A stretch of 33,429 nucleotides of DNA, from IMG/VR virus record IMGVR_UViG_3300028591_000058. One strand, given 5' to 3'. Shown here one piece after another: positions 2,583-31,495 of this stretch. This stretch comes from a virus. A model generated the notes under the pieces. It was not told the DNA's origin, did not search any database, and saw nothing but the letters and a program-made list of their open reading frames with translations. The number at the start of each line of letters is the position of its first letter. Within the stretch, counting starts at the first letter, position 1. A program made the translations under genes and the position numbers.

Positions 2583-2870
2583 ATGAAAAGATTTAGTATT
2601 TTACAAAAAGAAATGAACGAATGTTATTTTTGTGGGGCTACTAAAAATTTACATATACACGAAGTATTTTTTGGCACGGCTAACAGACAATTAAGTATTA
2701 AGTATGGTTGTTGTGTTAGCTTGTGTGCCATACATCATAATTTAAGTAATGCAAGCGTTCATTTTAATAGAGATATGGATTTAAACCTTAAAAGGGAAAT
2801 GCAAAAGAAATTTATTGAGGTTTACCCTGAATTAGATTTCTTAAAAATATTTAGAAAAAGTTATTTATAG
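2583..2870 (+). CDS. Small Cys/His zinc-binding protein, possibly an HNH/NinG-like nuclease fold
   Basis: 95 aa with CYFCG ... HIHEVFFG ... CCVSLCAIHH, i.e. a CxxC plus His-rich pattern; family assignment uncertain. Confidence 0.4.
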   Translation: MKRFSILQKEMNECYFCGATKNLHIHEVFFGTANRQLSIKYGCCVSLCAIHHNLSNASVHFNRDMDLNLKREMQKKFIEVYPELDFLKIFRKSYL

Positions 2871-2878
2871 GGGGGGTA

Positions 2879-3115
2879 ATGACAATGACACAGTGCGAAA
2901 GAATAGTTGAATATATGAAAATGTTTGGCAGTATATCACCATTAGAAGCATTTAGGGATTTAGGAATTACAAAACTTGCTACACGAATTAGTGAAATGAG
3001 AAAAACGGGAATGACGTTCGAACAAGAATATGTTAAATCAAAAAATCGTTTTGGTGAAGATGTTTATTTTATGAGATATTTTTTACCAAAAGAGGACAAG
3101 AAAGATGAAAATTGA
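2879..3115 (+). CDS. Small helix-turn-helix DNA-binding protein
   Basis: 78 aa. The segment LEAFRDLGITKLATRISEMRKTG resembles the phage HTH family with the RISELR motif. The ATG at 2885 has better spacing from the G7 RBS (2870-2876), so the start may be 2885. Confidence 0.55.
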   Translation: MTMTQCERIVEYMKMFGSISPLEAFRDLGITKLATRISEMRKTGMTFEQEYVKSKNRFGEDVYFMRYFLPKEDKKDEN

Positions 3116-3290
3116 AATAAGAAGTTTTTTTGATTGGCACGAAGCAACAAAAGAAATAGCTTTAATATTCTGTAATGAAATGATTAAATCAGGTATGCCA
3201 AATATTGACCCTAATAAAAGGATTGAAAGAATTAATAAACATCATTTAAGGGGAATTACATACGAAGAATTAAAAAAGCAGGTGAAATAA
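3105..3290 (+). CDS. Hypothetical protein
   Basis: 61 aa ORF overlapping the upstream stop, co-oriented. Confidence 0.45.
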   Translation: MKIEIRSFFDWHEATKEIALIFCNEMIKSGMPNIDPNKRIERINKHHLRGITYEELKKQVK

Positions 3291-3292
3291 AA

Positions 3293-4887
<1,595 letters not shown>

Positions 4888-4888
4888 T

Positions 4889-5110
4889 ATGAAAGATGAA
4901 TTAGTCGAATGTGCTTTCAATCAACAAGCTAAAAGGTCAAATTGTGTTGCATACTGTGAAAATCATAAATGCTATTTAACTATATTACATTTAAAAAATA
5001 TGAAATGTTTACAGAAACAATGCAATTATTTAAGAAAAGAAACTACACATAAATTTTGGCTTGAACGAGAAGAAAAAAAGAAAAAGAAAAGAGCAAATAA
5101 AAATGTATGA
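4889..5110 (+). CDS. Small Cys-rich hypothetical protein with a Lys-rich tail
   Basis: The ATG at 4889 follows the GGGGG RBS (4879-4883). The ORF-track start at 4871 lies inside the upstream gene. Seven Cys residues. Confidence 0.5.
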   Translation: MKDELVECAFNQQAKRSNCVAYCENHKCYLTILHLKNMKCLQKQCNYLRKETTHKFWLEREEKKKKKRANKNV

Positions 5111-5270
5111 TGAAAAAGATTATTTAAAATATCTAATAGACAAAGTAGAAGAAAATCATAATGAAAATAATTTTCTTGAAGAAAAAATTTATCAGGATTG
5201 TTTAGATAAATTTAGATTGATGTTAAAGAATAAAAGACAATTAAATTATTATAAAAGAGGTAGAAGATGA
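5103..5270 (+). CDS. Hypothetical protein
   Basis: ATG at 5103 (ATGTATGA overlap with the upstream stop) is preferred over the TTG-type start at 5061. Confidence 0.4.
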   Translation: MYDEKDYLKYLIDKVEENHNENNFLEEKIYQDCLDKFRLMLKNKRQLNYYKRGRR

Positions 5271-5500
5271 GTAAAGAATTAGAAGAAATTAAAACATTAA
5301 GAGGTTTTAATCAAGTTGAATTAAATAATGATAAAAATATAAATAAATCACTTGATGTTATTGAACAAGCCTTACTAAAAGCAGATAAAAATAAAAAGAT
5401 TATAGATGAATTAAAAACGCTTGTTAAATATGCAGATTTGGGTAAACAAAAAATTATTAGTTTAGCAGTTTTAAAAAACGCATTAAAAGAGGTTTTATAA
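5267..5500 (+). CDS. Hypothetical coiled-coil protein
   Basis: 77 aa ORF with an ATGA overlap. Confidence 0.5.
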   Translation: MSKELEEIKTLRGFNQVELNNDKNINKSLDVIEQALLKADKNKKIIDELKTLVKYADLGKQKIISLAVLKNALKEVL

Positions 5501-5501
5501 A

Positions 5502-5918
5502 ATGAGTAAAATAGAAGCATTAAAAGAATTAAAACATTGGAAAGAAACAAATAATGAAAATGGTGTTGTATGGCTTCCTTTATTTGCAGTTGAAAATATT
5601 GAAGAAGCATTGGAGGAATTAGAACAGATTAAGGAAACAAAACCTAGTGAAGCGATGAAGTGTTTGCATACAATAGCATTTAATCTTTCGTTTATAATAG
5701 GTGTTAATTTTGAAAATGAAATTGAAACTATTAAACAAGCATTATTAAAGGCACAAGAGCAAGAAAAGGTATTAAATGTTATTAAAGGAAAAATAATTTG
5801 GAATGAAAATGATAAATTAATGTGTGGTAGATATGCCGACACTGAAATAGAACTTGAAGAAGAAGATTTTGAAAATAAAGAAGAATTTAATACATTAAGA
5901 GGTATGTTAGATGACTAA
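5502..5918 (+). CDS. Hypothetical protein
   Basis: 138 aa ORF immediately after the upstream stop. Confidence 0.55.
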   Translation: MSKIEALKELKHWKETNNENGVVWLPLFAVENIEEALEELEQIKETKPSEAMKCLHTIAFNLSFIIGVNFENEIETIKQALLKAQEQEKVLNVIKGKIIWNENDKLMCGRYADTEIELEEEDFENKEEFNTLRGMLDD

Positions 5919-6305: not shown

Positions 6306-6542
6306 ATGAATAATCGTTTATATGACATTTTAAAATGGATTTCTGTAATAGTTATACCTGCGTTAGTTTGCTTAATTAATACATTAGGTCAAACGTGGGG
6401 TTGGCAATACACAAAAGAAATAACAATAACTATTGGTGCAATCGGTGTTTTCATTGGTGCAGTAATTCAAGTATCAAGTGCGAAATATAATAAGAGCCAA
6501 GAAGTAAAAGAAGATGAAAATAATAATAATAACAATAATTAG
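6306..6542 (+). CDS. Holin, Dp-1 family-like
   Basis: LYDILKWISVIVIPALVCLINTLGQTWGWQYTKEITITIGAIGVFIGAVIQVSS matches the Dp-1 holin pattern as I recall it. Two TM segments; poly-Asn tail. Confidence 0.65.
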   Translation: MNNRLYDILKWISVIVIPALVCLINTLGQTWGWQYTKEITITIGAIGVFIGAVIQVSSAKYNKSQEVKEDENNNNNNN

Positions 6543-6683: not shown

Positions 6684-7052
6684 ATGGCAATAATGAAATC
6701 TTGTAGCCGTTGCGGGAAAATTCACGCATACAATTATAAATGCTATGTCGGTAAAGTATATAAAAAAAATAGTATAGATAATTTAAGGTCAAGCTATGCG
6801 TGGACGCAAAAGGCGGAAGAAATAAAAAGAGCAAGTAATTATTTATGTGCTATATGTTTACAAGAGGGGATTTATAATTATCAAGAATTAGAAACACATC
6901 ACATTGTTAAATTACAGGTAGACCCTGAAAAGCTATTAGATAATTATAATTTAATATGTTTATGCAAATATCATCACAGAAAAGCAGATGACGGGGAAAT
7001 AGACCAAGATTTATTATTGAGGTTAGCAAAAGAAAGGGAAGATAAACAATGA
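6684..7052 (+). CDS. HNH endonuclease (packaging-associated type)
   Basis: CSRCGKIH ... CAICL ... THHIVKL ... CLCKYHHRKAD; GAGGTGG RBS; location upstream of the terminase genes as in HK97-like cos phages. Confidence 0.8.
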   Translation: MAIMKSCSRCGKIHAYNYKCYVGKVYKKNSIDNLRSSYAWTQKAEEIKRASNYLCAICLQEGIYNYQELETHHIVKLQVDPEKLLDNYNLICLCKYHHRKADDGEIDQDLLLRLAKEREDKQ

Positions 7053-7267
7053 GTGATAAAGAAATATTAGCTTTAATAAAAGAGAAACGTTATAACGCTT
7101 ATTGCGATTATGAATATAATATAGGACTTAATATGAGAGATAATAACAGGCAATCATATAATGCAAGAAAAGAAACTATTAAAGGGCTAGTAAATCAAAT
7201 TAATGTTTATGATGATTTAATTATTATTATAGAAAATCAAATTGCAAGAGAGGGGAAAAGTAAATAA
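7049..7267 (+). CDS. Hypothetical protein
   Basis: 72 aa ORF with an ATGA overlap. Confidence 0.5.
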   Translation: MSDKEILALIKEKRYNAYCDYEYNIGLNMRDNNRQSYNARKETIKGLVNQINVYDDLIIIIENQIAREGKSK

Positions 7268-7527
7268 TGGAATTAAAAGACACAATATCATTAATGACAA
7301 GTGCAGACTATAAAGAAAGATTTATAGCGGAATATTTACAGGTAAAGATAAGATACAACAAATTATTAAATATGCTTATGAAATGGGACAAAGGCGAATT
7401 AGATTTTAAACCTAGTGTGCCAAGAATGTATTATAATAAACAAATTGTATCAATGAATGATTATATTAAGGTATTAGAAGATAGAGCCAAGATTGAAAAG
7501 ATAGATTTATCAAAATACACAATCTAA
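7267..7527 (+). CDS. Conserved phage hypothetical protein
   Basis: 86 aa. MTSADYKERFIAEYLQVKIRYNKLLNML resembles a widespread small phage family of unknown function. Confidence 0.55.
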   Translation: MELKDTISLMTSADYKERFIAEYLQVKIRYNKLLNMLMKWDKGELDFKPSVPRMYYNKQIVSMNDYIKVLEDRAKIEKIDLSKYTI

Positions 7528-7758
7528 AAAAACAAAATCTAGTAATCTAACGTCTAACAGTAAAAATCCCCCCCTATGTTTTGGAAGAAAAAAACAAAAA
7601 GCGAACAAGACAAACCGCCCACATTCGAATACAAAAAACATTAATTTTTAAAGTTTTTTTGGAAAAAGTCGATAAAACGTTCAAATTTCAACGAAAAATG
7701 CAGTAAAAAGGCTAAAAAATAGCTTAAAATTAAAAAGGGGACAAATTGAGGTGTTTAT
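7528..7758 (+). promoter_or_regulatory. 231-bp non-coding region: candidate cos and/or promoter-operator region for the accessory operon
   Basis: No ORF. AATCTA occurs 3 times (7521, 7536, 7544). A C7 run lies at 7568-7574, within an A/purine-rich plus strand. AAACGTTCAAA...ACGAAAAA (7675-7698) is shared with the immunity region. Confidence 0.3.
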
Positions 7759-8823
7759 ATGACTAATAGAAAATTAAAAATTGAATATATACCTATTAAT
7801 GATTTAAGACCTTACGAGAATAACGCAAAGATACATACACAGGAACAAATAGAACAAATCAAACAATCAATTCAAGAATTCGGAATGAATGACCCAATAG
7901 CATTATGGAAAGATAACATAATTATTGAGGGTCACGGTCGATTGCTTGCGTGTCAATCTTTAGGAATAAAAGAAGTCCCTATTATTAGATTAGATGATTT
8001 AACAGATGATGAACGCAAAGCCTACACTCTTATTCATAACAAGCTAACAATGAATACAGATTTCGATATTGATATTTTAAATGCCGAATTAGAAGCAATA
8101 GAAATTGATATGTCGGATTTTGGTTTTGATATAGGGACATTAGATGATTTAGAAAATGAAGATTTTGAAGATGACGGTTATTATGGGGACGAAAGGGAAA
8201 GAACGAACAGAGCTTATAATCTTGATTTAATCGAAAATCTTACAAATGACTTTTGGCAAATGCCTATTATTGAAAATGATGATTTCATACCAAGCGATTT
8301 AATAGGCTTTAATTATGCCAAGTCAAGTGATAATAAAAATTGTGGAATTCACTTTTACGTTGACGATTACCAATTCGAACGTATATGGAATTACCCTGAA
8401 AAGTATATTGAAGTATTAAGAGAATATGAATGTATATTAAGCCCTGATTTTAGTTTATATCTTGATATGCCTATGCCTATGAAGATATGGAACATTTACA
8501 GGTCAAGATTAGTCGGACAATATTTTCAATCAAATGGAATTAAAGTTATACCGACAATTTCGTGGGCGGAAAAAGAAACATTTAGTTTTTGCTTTAAGGG
8601 AATACCTAAAGGCTCAATAGTAAGCATTTCAACAATAGGTGTTAAACAAGACCAAAACGCTTTACAAATATGGCGTGACGGGGTAGATGAAATGATTAAA
8701 CAAATAGAGCCGAAAGCAATTTTAATTTATGGTGGCAAGTTAGAATATGACTTTAAAGATATAAAAGTTTATTATTATGACAATAAGGTCACTGAAAATT
8801 GGCAGAAAGGGGGCGAAGAATAA
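7759..8823 (+). CDS. ParB N-terminal (ParB-like nuclease) domain fused to a DUF4417-like C-terminal domain
   Basis: N-terminus: IPINDLRPYENNAKIH ... IIIEGHGRLLA ... (ParB/Srx fold). C-terminus: HFYVDDYQFERIW, SPDFSLY, VIPTISW, ILIYGG, which I recall as DUF4417. GAGGTG RBS. Confidence 0.7.
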   Translation: MTNRKLKIEYIPINDLRPYENNAKIHTQEQIEQIKQSIQEFGMNDPIALWKDNIIIEGHGRLLACQSLGIKEVPIIRLDDLTDDERKAYTLIHNKLTMNTDFDIDILNAELEAIEIDMSDFGFDIGTLDDLENEDFEDDGYYGDERERTNRAYNLDLIENLTNDFWQMPIIENDDFIPSDLIGFNYAKSSDNKNCGIHFYVDDYQFERIWNYPEKYIEVLREYECILSPDFSLYLDMPMPMKIWNIYRSRLVGQYFQSNGIKVIPTISWAEKETFSFCFKGIPKGSIVSISTIGVKQDQNALQIWRDGVDEMIKQIEPKAILIYGGKLEYDFKDIKVYYYDNKVTENWQKGGEE

Positions 8824-9491
8824 TGAAATATTATTGTGGTGGACGTGGTAGTAGTTCGTCAAGCGGTGGCGGTTTTGGTCGTGGTGGCGGATTAAATCCT
8901 AACAATATTGTGTCAACAACATCACTTATTTCGGGAAGAAATGGCGGTTATAGGGACGAAGTCGACCAAGTTTTAACAGTAGCAAGAGATATACAAGAGC
9001 AATACGGCGTAAATTTGGATTATGACATCGCTACATTAAAAGGAAAAGACGCACAGGGAACATTAGGTTATTATGACGGTAGCAATCTTGCTATAAATAA
9101 AAATTATCTTAATGTTGATAAGATGAATAAAACTTATGACGCAAGCGTTGAAAGTGGTTATCACCCTAGCAGAGGTAATAAGTCAGGTTTAGAAGCCGTG
9201 ACATCTCACGAAATGGGTCATAAATTGACAGACGAAATCGGTAAAAAAATGGGTTTAGGAAGTTGGCAATTAGAAAAAGCGTCAGATAGTATATTAAAGC
9301 AAGCAACTACTAAAGCAGGTTATAAGAAAAATGAAACCTTTAAATTAGCAAGTAAAATAAGCGGTTATGCAAAGTCAAGTAAAGCCGAAGCGTTAGCCGA
9401 AGCCTTTGCAGATGTTTATTGCAACGGTAGTAAAGCAAGCAAAGAAAGTAAAGCAGTAGTTGATGTTATGAATTCTTATTTTAAGAAATAA
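8823..9491 (+). CDS. Zincin metallopeptidase-like protein (anthrax lethal factor / M34-like catalytic motifs) with a Gly/Ser/Arg-rich N-terminus
   Basis: HEMGHKL plus the downstream SGYAKSSKAEALAEAFADVY parallels LF HEFGHAV ... SYGRTNEAEFFAEAF. N-terminus is GGRGSSSSSGGGFGRGGG. The ATG at 8823 (TAATG overlap, GGGGG RBS) is preferred over the track start at 8799. Confidence 0.55.
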   Translation: MKYYCGGRGSSSSSGGGFGRGGGLNPNNIVSTTSLISGRNGGYRDEVDQVLTVARDIQEQYGVNLDYDIATLKGKDAQGTLGYYDGSNLAINKNYLNVDKMNKTYDASVESGYHPSRGNKSGLEAVTSHEMGHKLTDEIGKKMGLGSWQLEKASDSILKQATTKAGYKKNETFKLASKISGYAKSSKAEALAEAFADVYCNGSKASKESKAVVDVMNSYFKK

Positions 9492-9509
9492 TGAAAGGGG
9501 AAAATTAAA

Positions 9510-9674
9510 ATGGCAAAGAAAATTAATTATAGCGAGCCAAAAGATTACATACCAAAGGAATTAAGAAAAAAATACGGTTTAGGCGAATTCGCTAACGAAG
9601 AAACACAAGACAAAAATAAAGAACAAAAAAATAAAGAAAACGAAGAATTAAGAAAAGTTTTCAAAGGTAAGTAA
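9510..9674 (+). CDS. Small Lys/Glu-rich hypothetical protein (54 aa, not in the ORF track)
   Basis: My translation: MAKKINYSEPKDYIPKELRKKYGLGEFANEETQDKNKEQKNKENEELRKVFKGK. A GGGG RBS lies 9 nt upstream and a terminator follows. Confidence 0.4.
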   Translation: MAKKINYSEPKDYIPKELRKKYGLGEFANEETQDKNKEQKNKENEELRKVFKGK

Positions 9675-9681
9675 TTTATAT

Positions 9682-9708
9682 AGGCGTGGATTTAAAACAC
9701 GCCTTTTG
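9682..9708 (+). terminator. Rho-independent terminator closing the accessory operon
   Basis: AGGCGTG (9682-9688) pairs with CACGCCT (9698-9704) around a 9-nt loop, followed by TTTTG. Confidence 0.7.
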
Positions 9709-9757
9709 TGTAGTATGCCAAATAAGAAAATGAAATGAAAATAAATGAGGTGATAAA

Positions 9758-10117
9758 ATGGCTAAATTAAGTTTACAAGAGCAGGCAACAGAGATTTTAA
9801 AGATTGCGGAAGAAAGCGGTGTGTCAAATAACTTTTTCTTTGTGACAACATTTAAACGTTATCAAGTTCAATTAAAGATGTTAAGTGAATTAGAAAAGAA
9901 TATGAATGAGGACGGAATGTTAGTCACTAAAGAATATGTGAAAGGAAGAAAGAATTTATATTCATCACCCGCAGTAAAAGATTACAATTCAACAACAGAT
10001 AGTGCTAACAGAACGGTTGCAACATTAATGAAAATTATTAAAGGTTTTGATAATACAGGCTCACAAGATAATGACGACCCTTTAATGATGATGATTAATG
10101 GTGGCGATAATGAATGA
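9758..10117 (+). CDS. terS: Terminase small subunit (P27 family-like)
   Basis: 119 aa. The pattern FFFVTTFKRYQVQLKMLSELEK ... SPAVKDYNSTTDSANRTVATLMKI is typical of P27-type TerS. Immediately precedes TerL with an ATGA overlap. Confidence 0.75.
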   Translation: MAKLSLQEQATEILKIAEESGVSNNFFFVTTFKRYQVQLKMLSELEKNMNEDGMLVTKEYVKGRKNLYSSPAVKDYNSTTDSANRTVATLMKIIKGFDNTGSQDNDDPLMMMINGGDNE

Positions 10118-11790
10118 TTAAAGCATACGAATATTGTTTAAATAGTATTGATAAAGAAACTACCCCTAAATACGTTAAATTGCAAATGCAAGAATTTATA
10201 AATGTATATGAGGGTAAGAACGAAAAATATATAATAAGTAAAGATAAAGTAAAGCAATTAGAAAACATCTTAAAAATTCTTATAATGCCAAAAGGATTAA
10301 AAGCAGGTCAAACACTTTATAATTGCACGACGGGGTATCAATGGTTATTCTATACGGCGATTTTATGCACTGTTTATAAAGACAATCCACAGAAGCGAAG
10401 ATATGAAACAGGTATATTAGAAATATGCAGAAAGAATTTTAAGACTTACACGATTGCTACACTGTTTATTATTTTATTTTTAAGTGAGCCACAATTTAGT
10501 AAGTTTTATAGTGTTGCACCTGACGGTAGTTTATCGAAAGAAATTAAAGGGGCAATAGAAGAAACAATTAAGTCAAGCCCTTTAGTTTATGAATATAAAG
10601 ATACTAAAAGATTTAGGATTACAAGAGATTATATTAGATTTAATCCAAAAGAAAGTTTATATACGCCGTTAGCATTTTCAATAAGTCGTATGGACGGTAA
10701 ATTGCCTGCCGTATTTTGTGCGGACGAAGTAGGGGCGTTAAATACTAATTACCCTATTGAAGCTATGCGAAGCGGTCAATTAAACATCTTAAATAAATTA
10801 GGTTTTATTATTTCGACTAAATACCCGACAATAGATAATCCATTTGAAGATGAAGTAAGTTATAGCAAAAAGGTATTAGACGGAATTCTTGAAGATGATA
10901 CAAGATTTTCATTGTTGTATGAGCCTGACAATCCTAAAAATTGGGAAAGCGACGATTTAGTATTACAACAATCAAACCCTGTGGCACTTGAAATACCTGA
11001 AATATGGGAAGATTTATTAAAGAAAAGAGCTTATGCAATAGCAGTTGAAAGTGCAAGAGAAAATTTCGTCACTAAACACTGTAATATTATTTATCAAGGA
11101 ACAGGAACAGAAAGTTATGTTGATGTCGCAGACGTTCAAAAGTGTAAAGTCACAAATATTGATTGGAACGGTCGAGTTGTTTATTTAGGTTTAGACTTAT
11201 CGGAAAGCAACGACAACACAAGTGTATCAATGGTTAGTGCAGATGATGACAATAATATTTTAGCCGAAAGTGTAGCATTTATACCTGACGGAAGAATAGA
11301 CGAAAAGAACGCTTTTGAAAAAATTGATTATCGAGAATTCATAAGAACAATGAAATGTATCGCTTGCGGTGATAGAGTAATTGATTATGCAGTAGTTGAA
11401 GATTTTATATTAAATATAGAAGCTAAATATGGCGTTCAAGTGCAGGCAATAGGCTATGACCGTTATAACGCATTGTCAACGGCTCAAAAGTTAGAAAGAG
11501 CAGGTTATAATATGGTGGAAGTAAGGCAACATTCAAGCGTCTTACACCCGCCGACAAAGTTATTAAAAGAATATATTTTAAATGGCAAGTTTGCATATAC
11601 AGAAAATAAATTATTAGAAATTAATTTTCAAAATGCACGTTGCACTTATGACACAAATAAAAATTTATATGTGACTAAAAAGAAATCTAAAGGAAAAGTT
11701 GATATGGTTGTATCGCTTATCAATGCAATATATTTATTACAACAAGATGTATTGTTAAATCAAATGGATTTCGTAGTTCAAGTATTATAG
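10114..11790 (+). CDS. terL: Terminase large subunit
   Basis: 558 aa. Has Terminase_1-like layout, including VFCADEVG (Walker B-like) and a C-terminal nuclease region (YLGLDLSESNDNTS ... GYDRYN ... KVDMVVSLINA). Position fits. Confidence 0.85.
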   Translation: MIKAYEYCLNSIDKETTPKYVKLQMQEFINVYEGKNEKYIISKDKVKQLENILKILIMPKGLKAGQTLYNCTTGYQWLFYTAILCTVYKDNPQKRRYETGILEICRKNFKTYTIATLFIILFLSEPQFSKFYSVAPDGSLSKEIKGAIEETIKSSPLVYEYKDTKRFRITRDYIRFNPKESLYTPLAFSISRMDGKLPAVFCADEVGALNTNYPIEAMRSGQLNILNKLGFIISTKYPTIDNPFEDEVSYSKKVLDGILEDDTRFSLLYEPDNPKNWESDDLVLQQSNPVALEIPEIWEDLLKKRAYAIAVESARENFVTKHCNIIYQGTGTESYVDVADVQKCKVTNIDWNGRVVYLGLDLSESNDNTSVSMVSADDDNNILAESVAFIPDGRIDEKNAFEKIDYREFIRTMKCIACGDRVIDYAVVEDFILNIEAKYGVQVQAIGYDRYNALSTAQKLERAGYNMVEVRQHSSVLHPPTKLLKEYILNGKFAYTENKLLEINFQNARCTYDTNKNLYVTKKKSKGKVDMVVSLINAIYLLQQDVLLNQMDFVVQVL

Positions 11791-17379: not shown

Positions 17380-17706
17380 ATGAATTATAATTACACAATA
17401 GAAATAATAAGGGGTGATACTTGCCAAAAGAACGTATCAATTACAGGGGTGGAAACATCTTTAATAGATAGTGTATATTTTTCTTGCAGTGATTTAGAAA
17501 TTGATAAAGCACTTACTTATGACAGTGCAATCGGTAAGTGGATTTTTAGATTAGAGCCAAACGAAACATCAATTTTAAAGAAAATAACAAGTGATTTTGA
17601 TATAACAGTTAAATTTACAGATGATGACATTTCAACAGTAATATATCGTGGCACAATTAGGGTTTTACCAAAGAATAATAAAGTAGGTGATTTATCTAAT
17701 GAATAA
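17380..17706 (+). CDS. Small beta-rich protein, paralogue of 23617-23961
   Basis: IEIIRGDTCQKNVSITG..DSVYFSCSD..FRLEPNETS..RGTIRV aligns with LEMTKGDTLAFGIEIQD..ESAYFTCKN..VRIAPEDTK..KGILDI in the other ORF. Confidence 0.6.
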   Translation: MNYNYTIEIIRGDTCQKNVSITGVETSLIDSVYFSCSDLEIDKALTYDSAIGKWIFRLEPNETSILKKITSDFDITVKFTDDDISTVIYRGTIRVLPKNNKVGDLSNE

Positions 17707-19153
17707 TGATATTGAAATTAGAATTGATGATGATAGAAATATTGACGTTGATATGAGTAATGAATTAATTGAAAAGGTAGTCGTTCAAGCAGATTGGAAC
17801 GAAAACAACCCTAACAATGAGGGTTATATTAAAAATAAGCCTAATTTATCAAATGTAGCAACAAGTGGTGATTATGAAGATTTATCTAATAAGCCTACTA
17901 TACCGACAAAAACAAGCGATTTAACAAACGATAGTGATTTTGTCGATAGTAATTACGTAAATGGTAAAATAGACGATTTAAAATGGGAATTAGGGGCAAA
18001 TGATTTATCTTTACAAACAGATACAACAACGGCATATACAAAGACAGTGCCAATAGGTGCTATTGGGTGTAAACTCAATAAACTTGGCTTTATGAGTTAT
18101 AAGAGTAATAATATTTTACCAACTGATAAAATATCAAGTAATGTATCTTTTAGTAATGATATAATGTCAATTACTAATTCAACTAGTGGTATGAATATTT
18201 TAGATAGTATATCTTTGCCTGCAGGCACTTATGTATTTTCATTTATTTTAAAAACAAGTGGTTTAGAGCAAACGCATTCATTTACCGGTTATAAGAATAC
18301 CACTGATACTCCATTTACTGTGTTTAGTAATTTAAATACTTACAATGTAGGAGAAGTACATACTGCAACTTTAGTATTAACTGAAACAACTAATGTGTTT
18401 ATTAAACAATGGCAAACAGGTAGTGAAACCTATTCTTTCCAATTATGGATAAATAAAGACACTGCAAAAGATTACAATACTTATTTTACAGGTATTCGTG
18501 ATAGTGTAATAACAAGCATAAAAAGTTATGATAGCAATAACAACTTAATAGACACCTACACAATACCAAGTGAAATACAAGCATTAAGTGGTTATGGTAG
18601 AGGTATTAATGAGAATTGCTATAATGTATTGAATTTGGAAACAAAAGAATTTACTGATAAGGATAATAGAATTACTTTTAATGGCACTGAAAATTGGCAA
18701 AGAAGTGATACAAACGACACAACTACAAAAGGTTATTATTTCTATATAGAAGTAAGCGATTGTGTGACAGTAAGTGGTGGTAGTGATGTCTCTGATATTA
18801 CTGCAACAAATTTTAATGCAGGAAGCCCTAATTCTATTTATGGTGGTGCTCAAACAGGTGGACCTTATATCTCATATTGGACAGGTAGCAATCATAGAAT
18901 ATGTATATACGATAGAGATAATTTAGCATTTAAGACAGTTGCAGAATTTAAACAATGGTTAGCCGATAAATATACAAATGGAAATCCTATTGTTGTTAAT
19001 TACAAACTAGCAACATACAATACAACAAATGTAAGCCAATATATAACTAATAATGTTATTGAAGTTGAAGCAGGGGGCTATTTAGTATTTGAAAATCAAT
19101 ACGGACAAGCAGTGCCTAGTGATATTACTTATTTAATAGAGGTGGCAAAATGA
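17699..19153 (+). CDS. Tail-fibre-like protein
   Basis: The ATG at 17699 lies 8 nt after AGGTGA and makes an ATGAATAA overlap. The N-terminal fibre motif NKPNLSNVATSGDYEDLSNKPTIPTKTSDLTNDSDF is common in phage fibres. Confidence 0.65.
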   Translation: MNNDIEIRIDDDRNIDVDMSNELIEKVVVQADWNENNPNNEGYIKNKPNLSNVATSGDYEDLSNKPTIPTKTSDLTNDSDFVDSNYVNGKIDDLKWELGANDLSLQTDTTTAYTKTVPIGAIGCKLNKLGFMSYKSNNILPTDKISSNVSFSNDIMSITNSTSGMNILDSISLPAGTYVFSFILKTSGLEQTHSFTGYKNTTDTPFTVFSNLNTYNVGEVHTATLVLTETTNVFIKQWQTGSETYSFQLWINKDTAKDYNTYFTGIRDSVITSIKSYDSNNNLIDTYTIPSEIQALSGYGRGINENCYNVLNLETKEFTDKDNRITFNGTENWQRSDTNDTTTKGYYFYIEVSDCVTVSGGSDVSDITATNFNAGSPNSIYGGAQTGGPYISYWTGSNHRICIYDRDNLAFKTVAEFKQWLADKYTNGNPIVVNYKLATYNTTNVSQYITNNVIEVEAGGYLVFENQYGQAVPSDITYLIEVAK

Positions 19154-30007: not shown

Positions 30008-30030
30008 GGAAAAAGTAAATACATTTTACT
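30008..30030 (-). terminator. Weak AU-rich intrinsic terminator at the end of the recombinase gene
   Basis: Minus strand AGTAAA-ATGTA-TTTACT hairpin (30014-30030) overlaps the TAG stop and is followed by TTTTCC. Confidence 0.35.
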
Positions 30031-31495
30031 AAATCCTTAAATATATTTTTAATTCAATCGGTTTGTCGTTTGCTATTTGACCTCTTGTTGATGTAGTCTT
30101 TGTATATTCTATTTTATCAATAAATGATTTCAAGATTTCGTTTTTCTGTTTGCCTGTTAAGTTCCAATATTCATCTAATACCTTTTCTAATATAGGTATA
30201 GTTCTTAATGCTTTTTCTTCATCATCAAATGAAATATTGTTTAAACCCTCTAAATTCGATTTTAAGGCGTTTAATTCACTCTCTAGGGTATTTACACGTT
30301 TAAGGTATTTTTCTTTTGTATAAATGCCCTCTTCTAACATTTCACAACATCTATCAATCATAGTTTCTTTTTTTGAAATTTCTTTTAATAGGATTGATTT
30401 TTCATTTTCGATTTGTTGCTTTTTCTTATTAAGTTCTTGACCTGTATTTTCTAAAAAATAATTAAAGTTCTGTAATTCTTCTTTTAATTCATCAATTAAT
30501 TTATGCTCTACCAATTCACAATTAGATGATATATTACCACAATATAACGGACATCTATATACTGTTGTCCTTTTATCATCACTTTTAGTAAAGCGTGACA
30601 TAGTTCTTCCACAATTACCACATTTCAGGATTGTTGCAAGTGGATTTACTAATTCTTTATTATTTGTTGTTTTACATTCACGTTGTTTTAACATTTCTTG
30701 CACTACATAAAAAGTTTTTTCATCAATAAGTGGTTTATGCTTACCCTTAATACTGTTAGCTTCCGCCTTTTTAGTATTACAATTTACATAGCCTATATAA
30801 ACTTTATTAGACAAAATTCTTTTAATGGCTCTATTCTCCCAACGTTGTTGATTAATTAGACCTTTTATATTGTTTTCTGTTAAATAACGTCTTAAATCAC
30901 CTAGTCCCCAATTATCATAAGCAAATTTATTAAATATTAATCTTACAACATCGGCGTTTTCATCTTCAACTAAAACAAACCCTTTATCTATTCTTTCTTT
31001 AGAATAGCCAAAAGGCGGGGTAGTTCCTATAAAATACCCCTCTTTCTGTGCTTGCTTTCTTCCCCTTAAAAGCCGTCTATTAATGATTTTATATTCACGC
31101 CTAGACATAAATAATCCAAACTCGAAAAAATCTTCGTCAAAATCATTATCACTTGATAAATCATATATTTTATTTAATGTTAAGATTTTAGTTTTAGATT
31201 TCTTAAAAATTTCTAATATTTCGGCTTGGTCGATTTGATTACCTCTTGATAAACGTTCAATTTCAATAACAACAATACCCTCGTATTTTTGTTTTGCGAC
31301 ATCTTCAAGTAGTCTTTGCATTTCAGGTCTATTAGCTATATTTTCACCCGATACAACTTCTTTATAAATTTCTTTAATAATTAAATTGTTTCGCTTGCAA
31401 TAATCTAAAAGCATACGTTCGTGTCTTGCTAAAGTTTCTTCTCTTGTTTCTTCTTGGTCGTCACGTGATTTTCTTAAATAAATTGCTACATTCAT
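30029..31495 (-). CDS. Large serine recombinase (phage integrase)
   Basis: 488 aa. Resolvase-type N-terminus (VAIYLRKSRDDQ, with the catalytic Ser context), a recombinase domain, a zinc ribbon (CGNCGRTM ... YRCPLYCGN) and a long C-terminal coiled coil. Confidence 0.9.
   Translation of the reverse strand: MNVAIYLRKSRDDQEETREETLARHERMLLDYCKRNNLIIKEIYKEVVSGENIANRPEMQRLLEDVAKQKYEGIVVIEIERLSRGNQIDQAEILEIFKKSKTKILTLNKIYDLSSDNDFDEDFFEFGLFMSRREYKIINRRLLRGRKQAQKEGYFIGTTPPFGYSKERIDKGFVLVEDENADVVRLIFNKFAYDNWGLGDLRRYLTENNIKGLINQQRWENRAIKRILSNKVYIGYVNCNTKKAEANSIKGKHKPLIDEKTFYVVQEMLKQRECKTTNNKELVNPLATILKCGNCGRTMSRFTKSDDKRTTVYRCPLYCGNISSNCELVEHKLIDELKEELQNFNYFLENTGQELNKKKQQIENEKSILLKEISKKETMIDRCCEMLEEGIYTKEKYLKRVNTLESELNALKSNLEGLNNISFDDEEKALRTIPILEKVLDEYWNLTGKQKNEILKSFIDKIEYTKTTSTRGQIANDKPIELKIYLRI

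Follow-up and report, generated by a model that had tools for sequence, protein, structure and literature searches.

A ParB_N-DUF4417 gene and its leader-tagged neighbours form a widespread module upstream of phage terminase genes

Organization of the locus

The window analysed here is the whole 33,429-nucleotide stretch of IMG/VR virus record IMGVR_UViG_3300028591_000058, which was judged from its gene content to represent a temperate siphophage. Upstream of the terminase genes (terS and terL) it carries a gene for a fusion of ParB_N to DUF4417, a gene for a zincin-like protein, and an open reading frame (ORF) of 54 amino acids (aa). All three were present where a preliminary description, made from the sequence alone, had placed them, and they are listed with the surrounding features in Table 1. 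Our survey revealed that the region 7759-9674 is one copy of a widespread modular phage system at the head of the packaging/late region, in which the genes following ParB_N-DUF4417 are variable and share a short N-terminal leader, and which we tentatively read as a polymorphic effector system.

Table 1. Features at and around the ParB_N-DUF4417 module in the window
Feature	Position	Strand	Remark
HNH endonuclease	6684-7052	+	context
72-aa ORF	7049-7267	+	context
crAss001_48/'Sequestin' family protein, 86 aa	7267-7527	+	PF21825, phrog_774; 'Sequestin' is the newer Pfam label
Conserved non-coding gap	7528-7758	+	231 bp, upstream of the module
ParB_N-DUF4417 fusion, 354 aa	7759-8823	+	Pfam, PHROG, AF2 model
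HExxH zincin cassette, 222 aa	8823-9491	+	ATG overlaps the preceding TAA (TAATG)
Zincin pre-sequence MKYYC	8823-8837	+	alignment of 40 orthologs
Leader GGRGSSSS plus Gly-rich disordered linker (GGGFGRGGGLNP), aa 6-25	8838-8897	+	
M34/LF-like (nearest fold) gluzincin payload domain	8898-9491	+	
54-aa putative zincin partner	9510-9674	+	
Terminator-like hairpin AGGCGUG-N9-CACGCCU, then UUUUG	9683-9709	+	
TerS-like gene, phrog_13845	9758-10117	+	
TerL	10114-11790	+	

Properties of the ParB_N-DUF4417 protein

The protein matched the DUF4417 profile (PF14386) over positions 5-183 of 183 with E=5.5e-79 (264.3 bits against a cutoff of 28.9), and that of ParB_N (PF02195) barely above the cutoff (E=1.1e-6; 29.0 bits against 26.3), while phrog_940 spanned the entire protein (E=6e-115). 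PHROG ParB profiles matched strongly, e.g. phrog_620 (E=1.8e-50), and comparison with the PDB gave Noc (7nfu, E=1.1e-5), ParB-CTP structures (about 1e-4) and also SerK/sulfiredoxin by Foldseek, and E=7e-4 for ParB_N by profile search. The domain assignments proposed earlier were thus borne out firmly for DUF4417 and, with backing from the fold, for ParB_N, whereas the lethal factor (LF)-like nature of the zincin did not reach significance (see below).

In the domain layout, ParB_N (aa 8-94) is followed by an acidic disordered linker (aa ~100-165) and DUF4417 (aa 164-341), the last modelled by AF2 at pLDDT 85-93. The GxxR P-motif (Box II arginine) was located at G58-H-G-R61, and E57-G58-H59-G60-R61 was invariant across 25 homologs. 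From this motif, defined as required for nucleoside triphosphate (NTP) binding (bioRxiv 10.1101/2025.10.10.680097), the ParB_N domain is predicted to bind NTP. ParB_N and DUF4417 were the only domains detected in the protein, with neither a helix-turn-helix/parS-binding domain nor a C-terminal dimerisation domain; the score against TIGR00180 was 33 bits (cutoff, 58), and no ParA-like gene was found among the neighbours in the window. The ParB_N part was closest to the N-termini of ParB-methyltransferases (phrog_498, E=9e-42; PADLOC MTase_II, E=1.8e-27), and PADLOC matched no defence-system model beyond the ParB_N portion of the methyltransferase model. Fold matches of DUF4417 to TIM barrels were weak (PdxJ, E=7.5e-3) and not interpretable.

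Distribution and genomic position

More than 7,000 ParB_N-DUF4417 proteins were found (E<=1e-10, 90% clustering), and at least 576 IMG/VR loci encode one. The fusion corresponds to full-length PHROG 940 and occurs in pneumococcal MM1-type phages, in phages of group A and group B streptococci, and in those of gut Clostridia/Bacilli. DUF4417 is among the most frequent fusion partners of the phage ParB-CTPase fold, with no function assigned (bioRxiv 10.1101/2025.10.10.680097). With this abundance, the fusion is not the unusual replacement of a methyltransferase for which it had been taken; the companion statement, that the combination has not been characterised experimentally, still holds, and no functional paper on DUF4417 was found in a search of open-access literature.

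Gene neighbourhoods were compared in 84 loci, consisting of 80 from IMG/VR together with MM1, Javan377, one gut phage and the window (individual loci are designated L plus a number). A TerL gene on the same strand was located 566-2381 nt downstream (median 1364) in 74 of the 76 loci with enough sequence; 16 different TerL types were represented, and the HNH gene was present or absent. In MM1, a two-gene block lies directly upstream of terS and is annotated with flanking terminators. No property of ParB_N-DUF4417 is better conserved than its place immediately before terS/terL, contrary to the earlier view of an inserted block foreign to the packaging module.

A search of the phage collection at the DNA level matched only the DUF4417 segment (66-68%) and found no direct relatives. 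It was observed that close relatives of the window phage, with genes 88-97% identical, have one more cassette, placed after the 54-aa ORF and ahead of terS, encoding an ADP-ribosyltransferase (ART) in L084 (1907-2539) and a 211-aa protein in L192 (4255-4890); the window lacks it, so that cassette content differs between near-identical phages.

A conserved leader on interchangeable proteins

The window zincin and MM1 ORF29 proved unrelated (BLASTP E=9.5), indicating that the gene after ParB_N-DUF4417 is variable. The genes in this place differ among phages, yet nearly all begin MGGRG[A/S]. We scanned the first 40 residues of ORFs for G[GS]RG[ASGV], comparing those in the 2.6 kb downstream of ParB_N-DUF4417 with those elsewhere. 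The motif was present in 117 of 345 downstream ORFs, 10 of which were false positives from the TerL P-loop, leaving 107; elsewhere it was present in 4 of 846, all four just upstream of the ParB gene. One to five cassettes with the leader at the N-terminus were found in 69 of 78 loci, and 5-6 of the other nine carry the motif internally. After dereplication at 90% identity, a GGRG protein remained in 41 of 45 lineages, and after dereplication at 70% in 31 of 35. Approached from the other side, loci found from the commonest cassette, phrog_9479, had DUF4417 upstream in 65 of 66 cases, and when bacterial genomes were searched with the zincin, ParB_N was adjacent in 12 of 14 loci, the remaining two being decayed. 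The genes are thus linked, as had been proposed, and in the window the sole G[GS]RG[AS] site is the zincin leader.

The consensus of 94 distinct leaders was G (100%), G/S, R (100%), G (100%), A/S, S, S, G. Since the glycine codons vary freely over GGC, GGT and GGA, and the arginine codons over AGA, CGT and CGA, the leader is selected as a peptide and not as a DNA site. An explanation at the nucleotide level, such as a recombination site or a shared ribosome-binding site (RBS), was ruled out by this codon variation and by the differing upstream 15-mers.

The cassettes consist of the 8-residue leader GGRG[A/S]SSG, a disordered Gly-rich linker and a variable payload; they are 40-260 aa in size, and none has a MuF domain. 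The roughly 107 cassettes fell into about 34 clusters not connected by BLASTP. Recognised payloads included 1) the window zincin family, with HExxH in 8 of 8 members, 2) Gln_amidase (PF15644), a papain-fold glutamine deamidase (E=1.8e-15 to 2.5e-17; 58-64 bits against a cutoff of 24.1), 3) ADPrib_exo_Tox (PF03496), an ART (E=2e-16 to 2e-18; 60-67 bits against 23.4), and 4) a weak PARP-like match and JAB-like HNHP proteins. A very common payload is the 130-aa His-rich family phrog_9479; cassettes C0 (130 aa) and C1 had no Pfam or NCBIfam family at cutoff. The zincin is one of the payload clusters and occurs in about 10 of the 84 loci, so that the co-occurrence of ParB_N-DUF4417 with a zincin, suggested by the preliminary description, gives way to a pairing with any leader-tagged payload.

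In phages Str01/A25, DUF4417 stands alone without ParB_N and a cassette still follows, which argues that DUF4417 and a leader-tagged cassette are the core pair. The Str01 cassette (L196, KY349816; 36429-36838) begins MGGRGASSGMSDK..., a start missed in GenBank, where STR01_54 starts at 36455 and thereby loses the leader MGGRGASSG; the true start at 36429 overlaps the end of the DUF4417 gene. Because of this overlap, the same mis-annotation is probably common in other cassette genes.

In MM1-type proteins, a 70-aa N-terminal domain precedes GGRG, the Gly linker and a JAB-like domain with HNHPSGG. This domain of about 70 aa ('..DLELYN..') was observed ahead of GGRG and a JAB-like payload in L001 (5067-5813, MM1 ORF29), L010, L015, L026 and L059, and as a separate ORF just upstream of the cassette in L014 (1405-1659) and L017 (5078-5359); it had no Pfam match. 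Reading these proteins as a ubiquitin-like-GG/JAB arrangement was dropped, the residues before GGRG not being conserved and most leaders starting at Met.

The breadth of payloads bears on the first proposal made for the locus, an accessory (anti-defence) operon confined to this phage, in which a ParB-type nuclease/CTPase and a protease cooperate, with the 54-aa protein as third subunit. Translationally coupled or closely spaced genes and the retained GxxR NTP-binding motif would suit such cooperation, and anti-defence roles have been speculated upon for such fusions (bioRxiv 10.1101/2025.10.10.680097). However, about 34 payloads pair with ParB_N-DUF4417 and the zincin is not needed, DUF4417 of Str01/A25 retains its cassette without ParB_N, and the block occurs in many phages without being clearly a separate transcription unit; we regard this proposal as quite improbable.

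Leader type follows the neighbouring enzyme

In 8 distinct loci (L086, L091/L098 and L099-L104, the last six found by a dedicated scan), a radical-SAM protein of 340 aa takes the place of DUF4417, and ParB_N is a separate protein of 180 aa. The radical-SAM protein belongs to the PA0069/Rv2578c/SplB-like branch (NCBIfam E=2e-17; Pfam Radical_SAM E=3.7e-5, below cutoff). GGRG was not found in any cassette of these 8 loci; their approximately 14 cassettes start MGSC.SG.K.GG, MC[SG]N[MS]G[SG]G, MGNC[SN] or MGCRSG. The payloads cross this boundary: the zincin of L104, with a Cys leader, was 73% identical to that of L008, with an LQFF-GGRG leader, and identity across leader types was 57% for deamidases and 44% for cluster C5. 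L086 and L090 agree almost completely in zincin and terminase, yet differ in both enzyme and leader, and L091 combines enzyme and leader in the same way beside another terminase. No other observation argues as strongly for recognition or modification of the leader by the enzyme as this joint exchange of the two.

It was also observed that L105-L111 (about 2800-5900 in each) encode two tandem ParB_N-only proteins and an SplB-like radical-SAM protein upstream of the terminase genes, together with an ORF of 284-298 aa bearing a 'GEVNGGKLRQ' motif, possibly a pyridoxal phosphate (PLP) enzyme; this gene group may be a DNA-hypermodification set.

The main rival to an effector system holds that two unrelated functions share one locus, with a DNA-modifying/anti-restriction ParB_N-DUF4417 acting before packaging and the cassettes being independent morons in a recombination-permissive slot upstream of terS. 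The resemblance of ParB_N to the N-termini of ParB-methyltransferases is in its favour, as are the replacement of DUF4417 by an SplB-like radical-SAM protein, which in L105-L111 occurs with the PLP-enzyme-like ORF and no cassettes, and the homing endonucleases inserted in the region. It leaves unaccounted for an 8-residue leader conserved as peptide on about 34 unrelated payloads, a leader that turns Cys-type precisely at the change of enzyme, with the payload unchanged, and the near-obligate linkage in both directions. We consider two independent functions unlikely, while giving them more credit than the other alternatives discussed here.

The zincin payload

The window zincin had no Pfam family at cutoff, the best being Peptidase_M90 (E=0.0065), and likewise no NCBIfam family; no Pfam M34/ATLF match was found at E<=0.01, and none of 394 homologs had a Pfam call. 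Nevertheless, H129, E130 and H133 of the HExxH motif (HEMGH, 9207-9221) together with Y182 (9366-9368) and E189/E193 (E189 at 9387-9389) were invariant across 40 homologs. The Tyr and Glu are spaced Y-x6-E, which we take to be also the spacing of Y728/E735 in LF and Y178/E185 in PPEP-1. From this spacing, and without a significant alignment, Y182 and E189 may be equivalent to the LF residues.

The predicted structure had a pLDDT of 91.8, with 51-63 for residues 1-20, the first 20-25 residues being disordered in the model. The 15 best fold matches in the PDB were all anthrax lethal factor but none was significant (E=0.12-1.1, TMq<=0.41), PPEP-1/Zmp1 came next, and the profile search against the PDB gave E=0.2 for LF. 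A gut-phage homolog in BFVD (E=3.7e-16) is merely labelled 'Lethal factor'. The LF-like fold is therefore the nearest one and statistically not established.

The 54-aa ORF, the hairpin and the upstream gap

The 54-aa ORF had no Pfam or NCBIfam family at cutoff. Its motif Y.EP..Y[FI]PK.[LIV]RK recurs in relatives, which indicates a real gene; the core, YSEPKDYIPKELRKKYGLGEFA, lies at 9528-9593 and is followed by a Lys/Glu-rich tail. Among viral loci, the motif EP..Y[FIL]PK..RK was present in 7 of the 10 with a zincin and absent from the 74 others (Fisher p=2.6e-8), and a homolog was adjacent to the zincin in all 14 genome loci, either preceding or following it. The small ORF goes specifically with the zincin and not with ParB_N-DUF4417 in general. 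By this pairing, the 54-aa protein would be an inhibitor or immunity-like partner that holds the zincin in check in the producing cell; more speculatively, it might act as a pseudo-substrate via its basic-then-hydrophobic stretch RKKYGLGEF. As read off the ORF lists, an ORF of 75-89 aa follows the deamidase cassettes of L009, L012, L016, L076, L078, L100 and L102, whereas no adjacent small partner was evident for C0, the commonest cassette.

The hairpin at 9683-9704 has a 7-bp GC-rich stem and a 9-nt loop, with UUUUG after it (z=-2.4), and had been missed by our terminator pattern scan because the latter was limited to loops of <=8 nt. It had been described as a clean terminator bounding the unit; the hairpin itself is real, but in the relative L192, where it is conserved, another MGGRG cassette follows before terS, so that it belongs to the zincin/small-ORF sub-module and does not close an operon. 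With this cassette after the hairpin, and with no good sigma-70-like promoter in the gap 7528-7758, an independent transcription unit was not confirmed.

The gap contains no substantial ORF, but is as conserved as coding sequence (88% column identity with L192 and L194); a search of 7400-9900 against Rfam gave no family. It could hold a late promoter or a cos site. A C7 tract was noticed at 7568-7574 and, beside it, two terminator-like hairpins with T-runs on the minus strand (7567-7622), which could relate to cos or to regulation.

Mobile genes were also seen in this region. In L192 (1658-2299) and L193 (123-764), a NUMOD3 homing endonuclease gene sits exactly at the start codon of ParB_N-DUF4417, and in L192 it takes over the RBS (GAGGTG) and ATG of that gene; in L093 (3267-3920), a GIY-YIG/NUMOD gene lies between ParB_N-DUF4417 and the zincin.

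Leader prefixes and processing

GGRG follows the initiator Met immediately in 78 cassettes, from which methionine aminopeptidase, by its usual preference for Met before Gly, would remove the Met. Within the zincin family, 40 orthologs align from GGRG onward and bear three forms of prefix, i.e. M alone, M.[KR].[DN][LI]Q[FYLM]F, and MKYYC/MRCYC/KIYC. The second of these corresponds to the P-side of the bL27/Prp motif MLxx(D/N)LQ(F/L)F'A, which is cut after Phe (PMC9405229) and is also used on the capsid and scaffold proteins of phage 80alpha (PMC5744158). Judged by this match, Prp would cleave cassettes bearing the LQFF-type prefix.

Prefixes otherwise known from capsid and scaffold proteins, together with the constant position beside terS/terL and the ability of ParB domains to nick DNA (PMC5512222), might suggest a packaging accessory, with ParB_N-DUF4417 helping the terminase to recognise or cut pac/cos and the leader proteins serving as minor head or scaffold-like components. 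Against this, toxin enzymes accompanied by immunity-like partners are no structural proteins, the module stands beside 16 unrelated TerL types, cos and pac alike, and the number and identity of cassettes vary freely among near-identical phages; a packaging accessory thus seems to us the least credible of the possibilities.

Proposed function

Several properties of the module were computed directly, namely the linkage, the leader and its conservation at the peptide level, the diversity of payloads, the pairing of payload and partner, and the co-variation of enzyme and leader. On this basis we favour, tentatively and with somewhat less than even confidence, a polymorphic effector system in which the leader is recognised or modified by DUF4417 and the effectors are routed to the virion and the next host. 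Its components would be DUF4417 (here with ParB_N), one to five leader cassettes and, for some payloads, a cognate small partner; in the window, there would be a single zincin cassette, kept inactive in the producing cell by the 54-aa protein. Three steps are proposed: 1) the leader would be exposed as mature N-terminus by removal of Met, Gly being at position 2, or by Prp cleavage after ...LQFF, 2) DUF4417 would bind or chemically modify the leader, with ParB_N adding NTP and possibly DNA binding, and 3) the marked effectors would be co-packaged with DNA or capsid and delivered to the next host, like MuF-fused toxins and the T4 Alt/internal proteins (IP). Their role after delivery would lie in taking over the host, countering its defences or killing competitors.

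The virion is the most likely route, we infer, because 1) other phages fuse these payload folds to minor capsid proteins of the MuF-like kind, in which the zincin fold and the ART domain recur as C-terminal parts, 2) outside the module, prefixes of the Prp type occur on capsid proteins, and 3) the genes are expressed alongside packaging genes. A bolder mechanism, which we deem very improbable, is that DUF4417 with ParB_N (NTP-dependent activation, DNA binding) covalently couples the N-terminal Gly of the leader to phage DNA, the radical-SAM protein doing likewise via the leader Cys, so that the terminase drags effectors into the capsid and they are injected as protein-DNA conjugates. In a milder form, an enzyme-written post-translational mark on the leader would be a general ticket into virions.

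Several points weigh against an effector system of this kind. Fold and profile searches of the PDB gave no significant relative for DUF4417, all significant matches being via ParB_N, so that DUF4417 cannot be assigned a chemistry; its counterparts beside ParB_N, i.e. DNA methyltransferases and SplB-like radical-SAM proteins, are DNA-directed, which favours a DNA substrate. Both the contact between DUF4417 and leader and the entry of cassettes into virions are inferred indirectly. The co-variation rests on 8 loci, seven further radical-SAM loci (L105-L111) lack any cassettes, and the surveyed phages are related (from gut and oral Firmicutes), so that counts are not phylogenetically independent. 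In MM1-type proteins GGRG lies about 70 aa from the N-terminus, and the window prefix KYYC matches no known processing site; Prp-type motifs were not found on the window's own capsid proteins either, which leaves the MKYYC prefix unexplained. Lastly, liquid chromatography-tandem mass spectrometry of CsCl-purified Str01 virions listed 12 proteins, from which both the DUF4417 protein and the C0 cassette were missing (PMC6195288); this negative is weak because the list also omits several genuine tail proteins.

The Str01 list is also what would be expected if the cassettes were polymorphic antibacterial toxins released at lysis in the manner of bacteriocins, with partners protecting lysogens and the leader serving processing, stability or uptake. 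Gln_amidase, ART and zincin are indeed classic polymorphic-toxin domains with small cognate downstream ORFs (PMC5576092). However, C0, the commonest cassette, has neither an adjacent partner nor a toxin-domain match, no export or uptake domain occurs in the cassettes, expression in lysogens is doubtful for partner genes in the lytic late region, and neither the strict place at the head of the packaging operon nor the coupling to DUF4417 is accounted for. Release at lysis is therefore improbable in our view.

The individual domains had been catalogued and the fusion was known but uncharacterised; for the leader, the cassette family and the coupling of enzyme and leader, no earlier description was found in open-access papers. 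With the leader on interchangeable effectors, DUF4417, one of the commonest phage ParB fusions, gains a concrete candidate partner or substrate of 8 residues. The leader would define a class of phage-borne polymorphic effectors alongside MuF toxins, and it flags hundreds of small 'hypothetical' genes of the late region as probable effectors, among them ARTs, deamidases, zincins, JAB peptidases and many unknown folds, while pointing to candidate inhibitor or immunity proteins as well. Should the leader indeed route proteins to the virion, it would offer a small, portable tag with which cargo could be loaded into Firmicutes phages.

Other features of the window phage

The window encodes a serine integrase (30029-31495, minus strand), a replisome organiser, an HK97-type portal/protease/major-capsid set, a tape measure and tail genes; the head module is portal-protease-capsid, and no MuF-like head protein or MuF homolog was found in the window. 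A 78-aa protein (6306-6542) has two predicted membrane helices and a poly-Asn tail, and precomputed matches of an identical gene carry the label Phage_holin_Dp1 (PF16938); its gene sits upstream of the HNH/packaging region, not among lysis genes. In the early region, a 354-aa protein (3293-4357) resembles 3'-phosphoadenosine-5'-phosphosulfate reductases (phrog_424, E=7e-29) and may be part of a DNA-modification pathway. Inside the block of tail genes, a 488-aa ORF with a GTG start (17687-19153) had no PHROG match at E<=1e-5.

Comparison with known systems

The concept of polymorphic toxin systems reportedly goes back to Zhang et al. 2012; the module resembles such systems in that a constant N-terminal part stands on about 34 unrelated payloads, and in that payload domains such as Gln_amidase and ADPrib_exo_Tox occur in other toxin families as well. 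Closest are the MuF polymorphic toxins of temperate phages (Jamet et al. 2017, PMC5576092) and the MuF-fused effectors (Iyer et al. 2017, PMC5512222). MuF toxins, too, are encoded beside the head/packaging genes of temperate phages, have a constant N-terminal part and swappable C-terminal payloads, including metallopeptidases, ADP-ribosyltransferases and deamidases, and are accompanied by small payload-specific ORFs (PMC5576092). They differ in having a MuF head-protein domain of about 300 aa where the module has an 8-residue leader and a disordered linker, whereas the cassettes are separate small proteins, often in tandem, tied to a dedicated DUF4417 or radical-SAM gene.

The T4 Alt/internal proteins carry a capsid targeting sequence, and their ADP-ribosyltransferase cargo is injected with the DNA (PMC5512222). 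Like the leader, the T4 signal is a short N-terminal peptide on unrelated proteins, and it is processed by a protease. In contrast, it is read by the scaffolding core, cut by the prohead protease and accompanied by no co-varying enzyme gene; it has no sequence similarity to GGRG, and for the cassettes packaging is a prediction from the genes.

Ribosomally synthesised and post-translationally modified peptides (RiPPs) offer another parallel, as a short N-terminal leader co-varies with an adjacent enzyme, including pairs of radical-SAM protein and Cys leader. However, the 'core' in the module is a folded enzyme of 10-25 kDa instead of a peptide, modification is suggested here by the genes, and the radical-SAM protein is of the SplB/PA0069 branch, with no SPASM domain seen in it.

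The ParB_N-methyltransferase fusions and the ParB domains of polyvalent proteins (PMC5512222) share with the module a GxxR ParB_N, a context of late-region or virion genes and the lack of ParA. DUF4417, however, is without methyltransferase motifs, and obligatory leader-tagged neighbours have not been described for the methyltransferase fusions.

Anthrax LF and PPEP-1 (MEROPS M34) have, like the zincin, HExxH, a conserved Tyr and a Glu seven residues later, whereas no score between them was significant (fold E>=0.12, TM<=0.41; profile E=0.2 for LF); unlike LF, the zincin is a single domain of 200 aa, in an intracellular phage context and with a dedicated 54-aa partner. Taken together, these comparisons suggest that the module may belong among the phage-encoded polymorphic effector systems, with a delivery logic that may be new.

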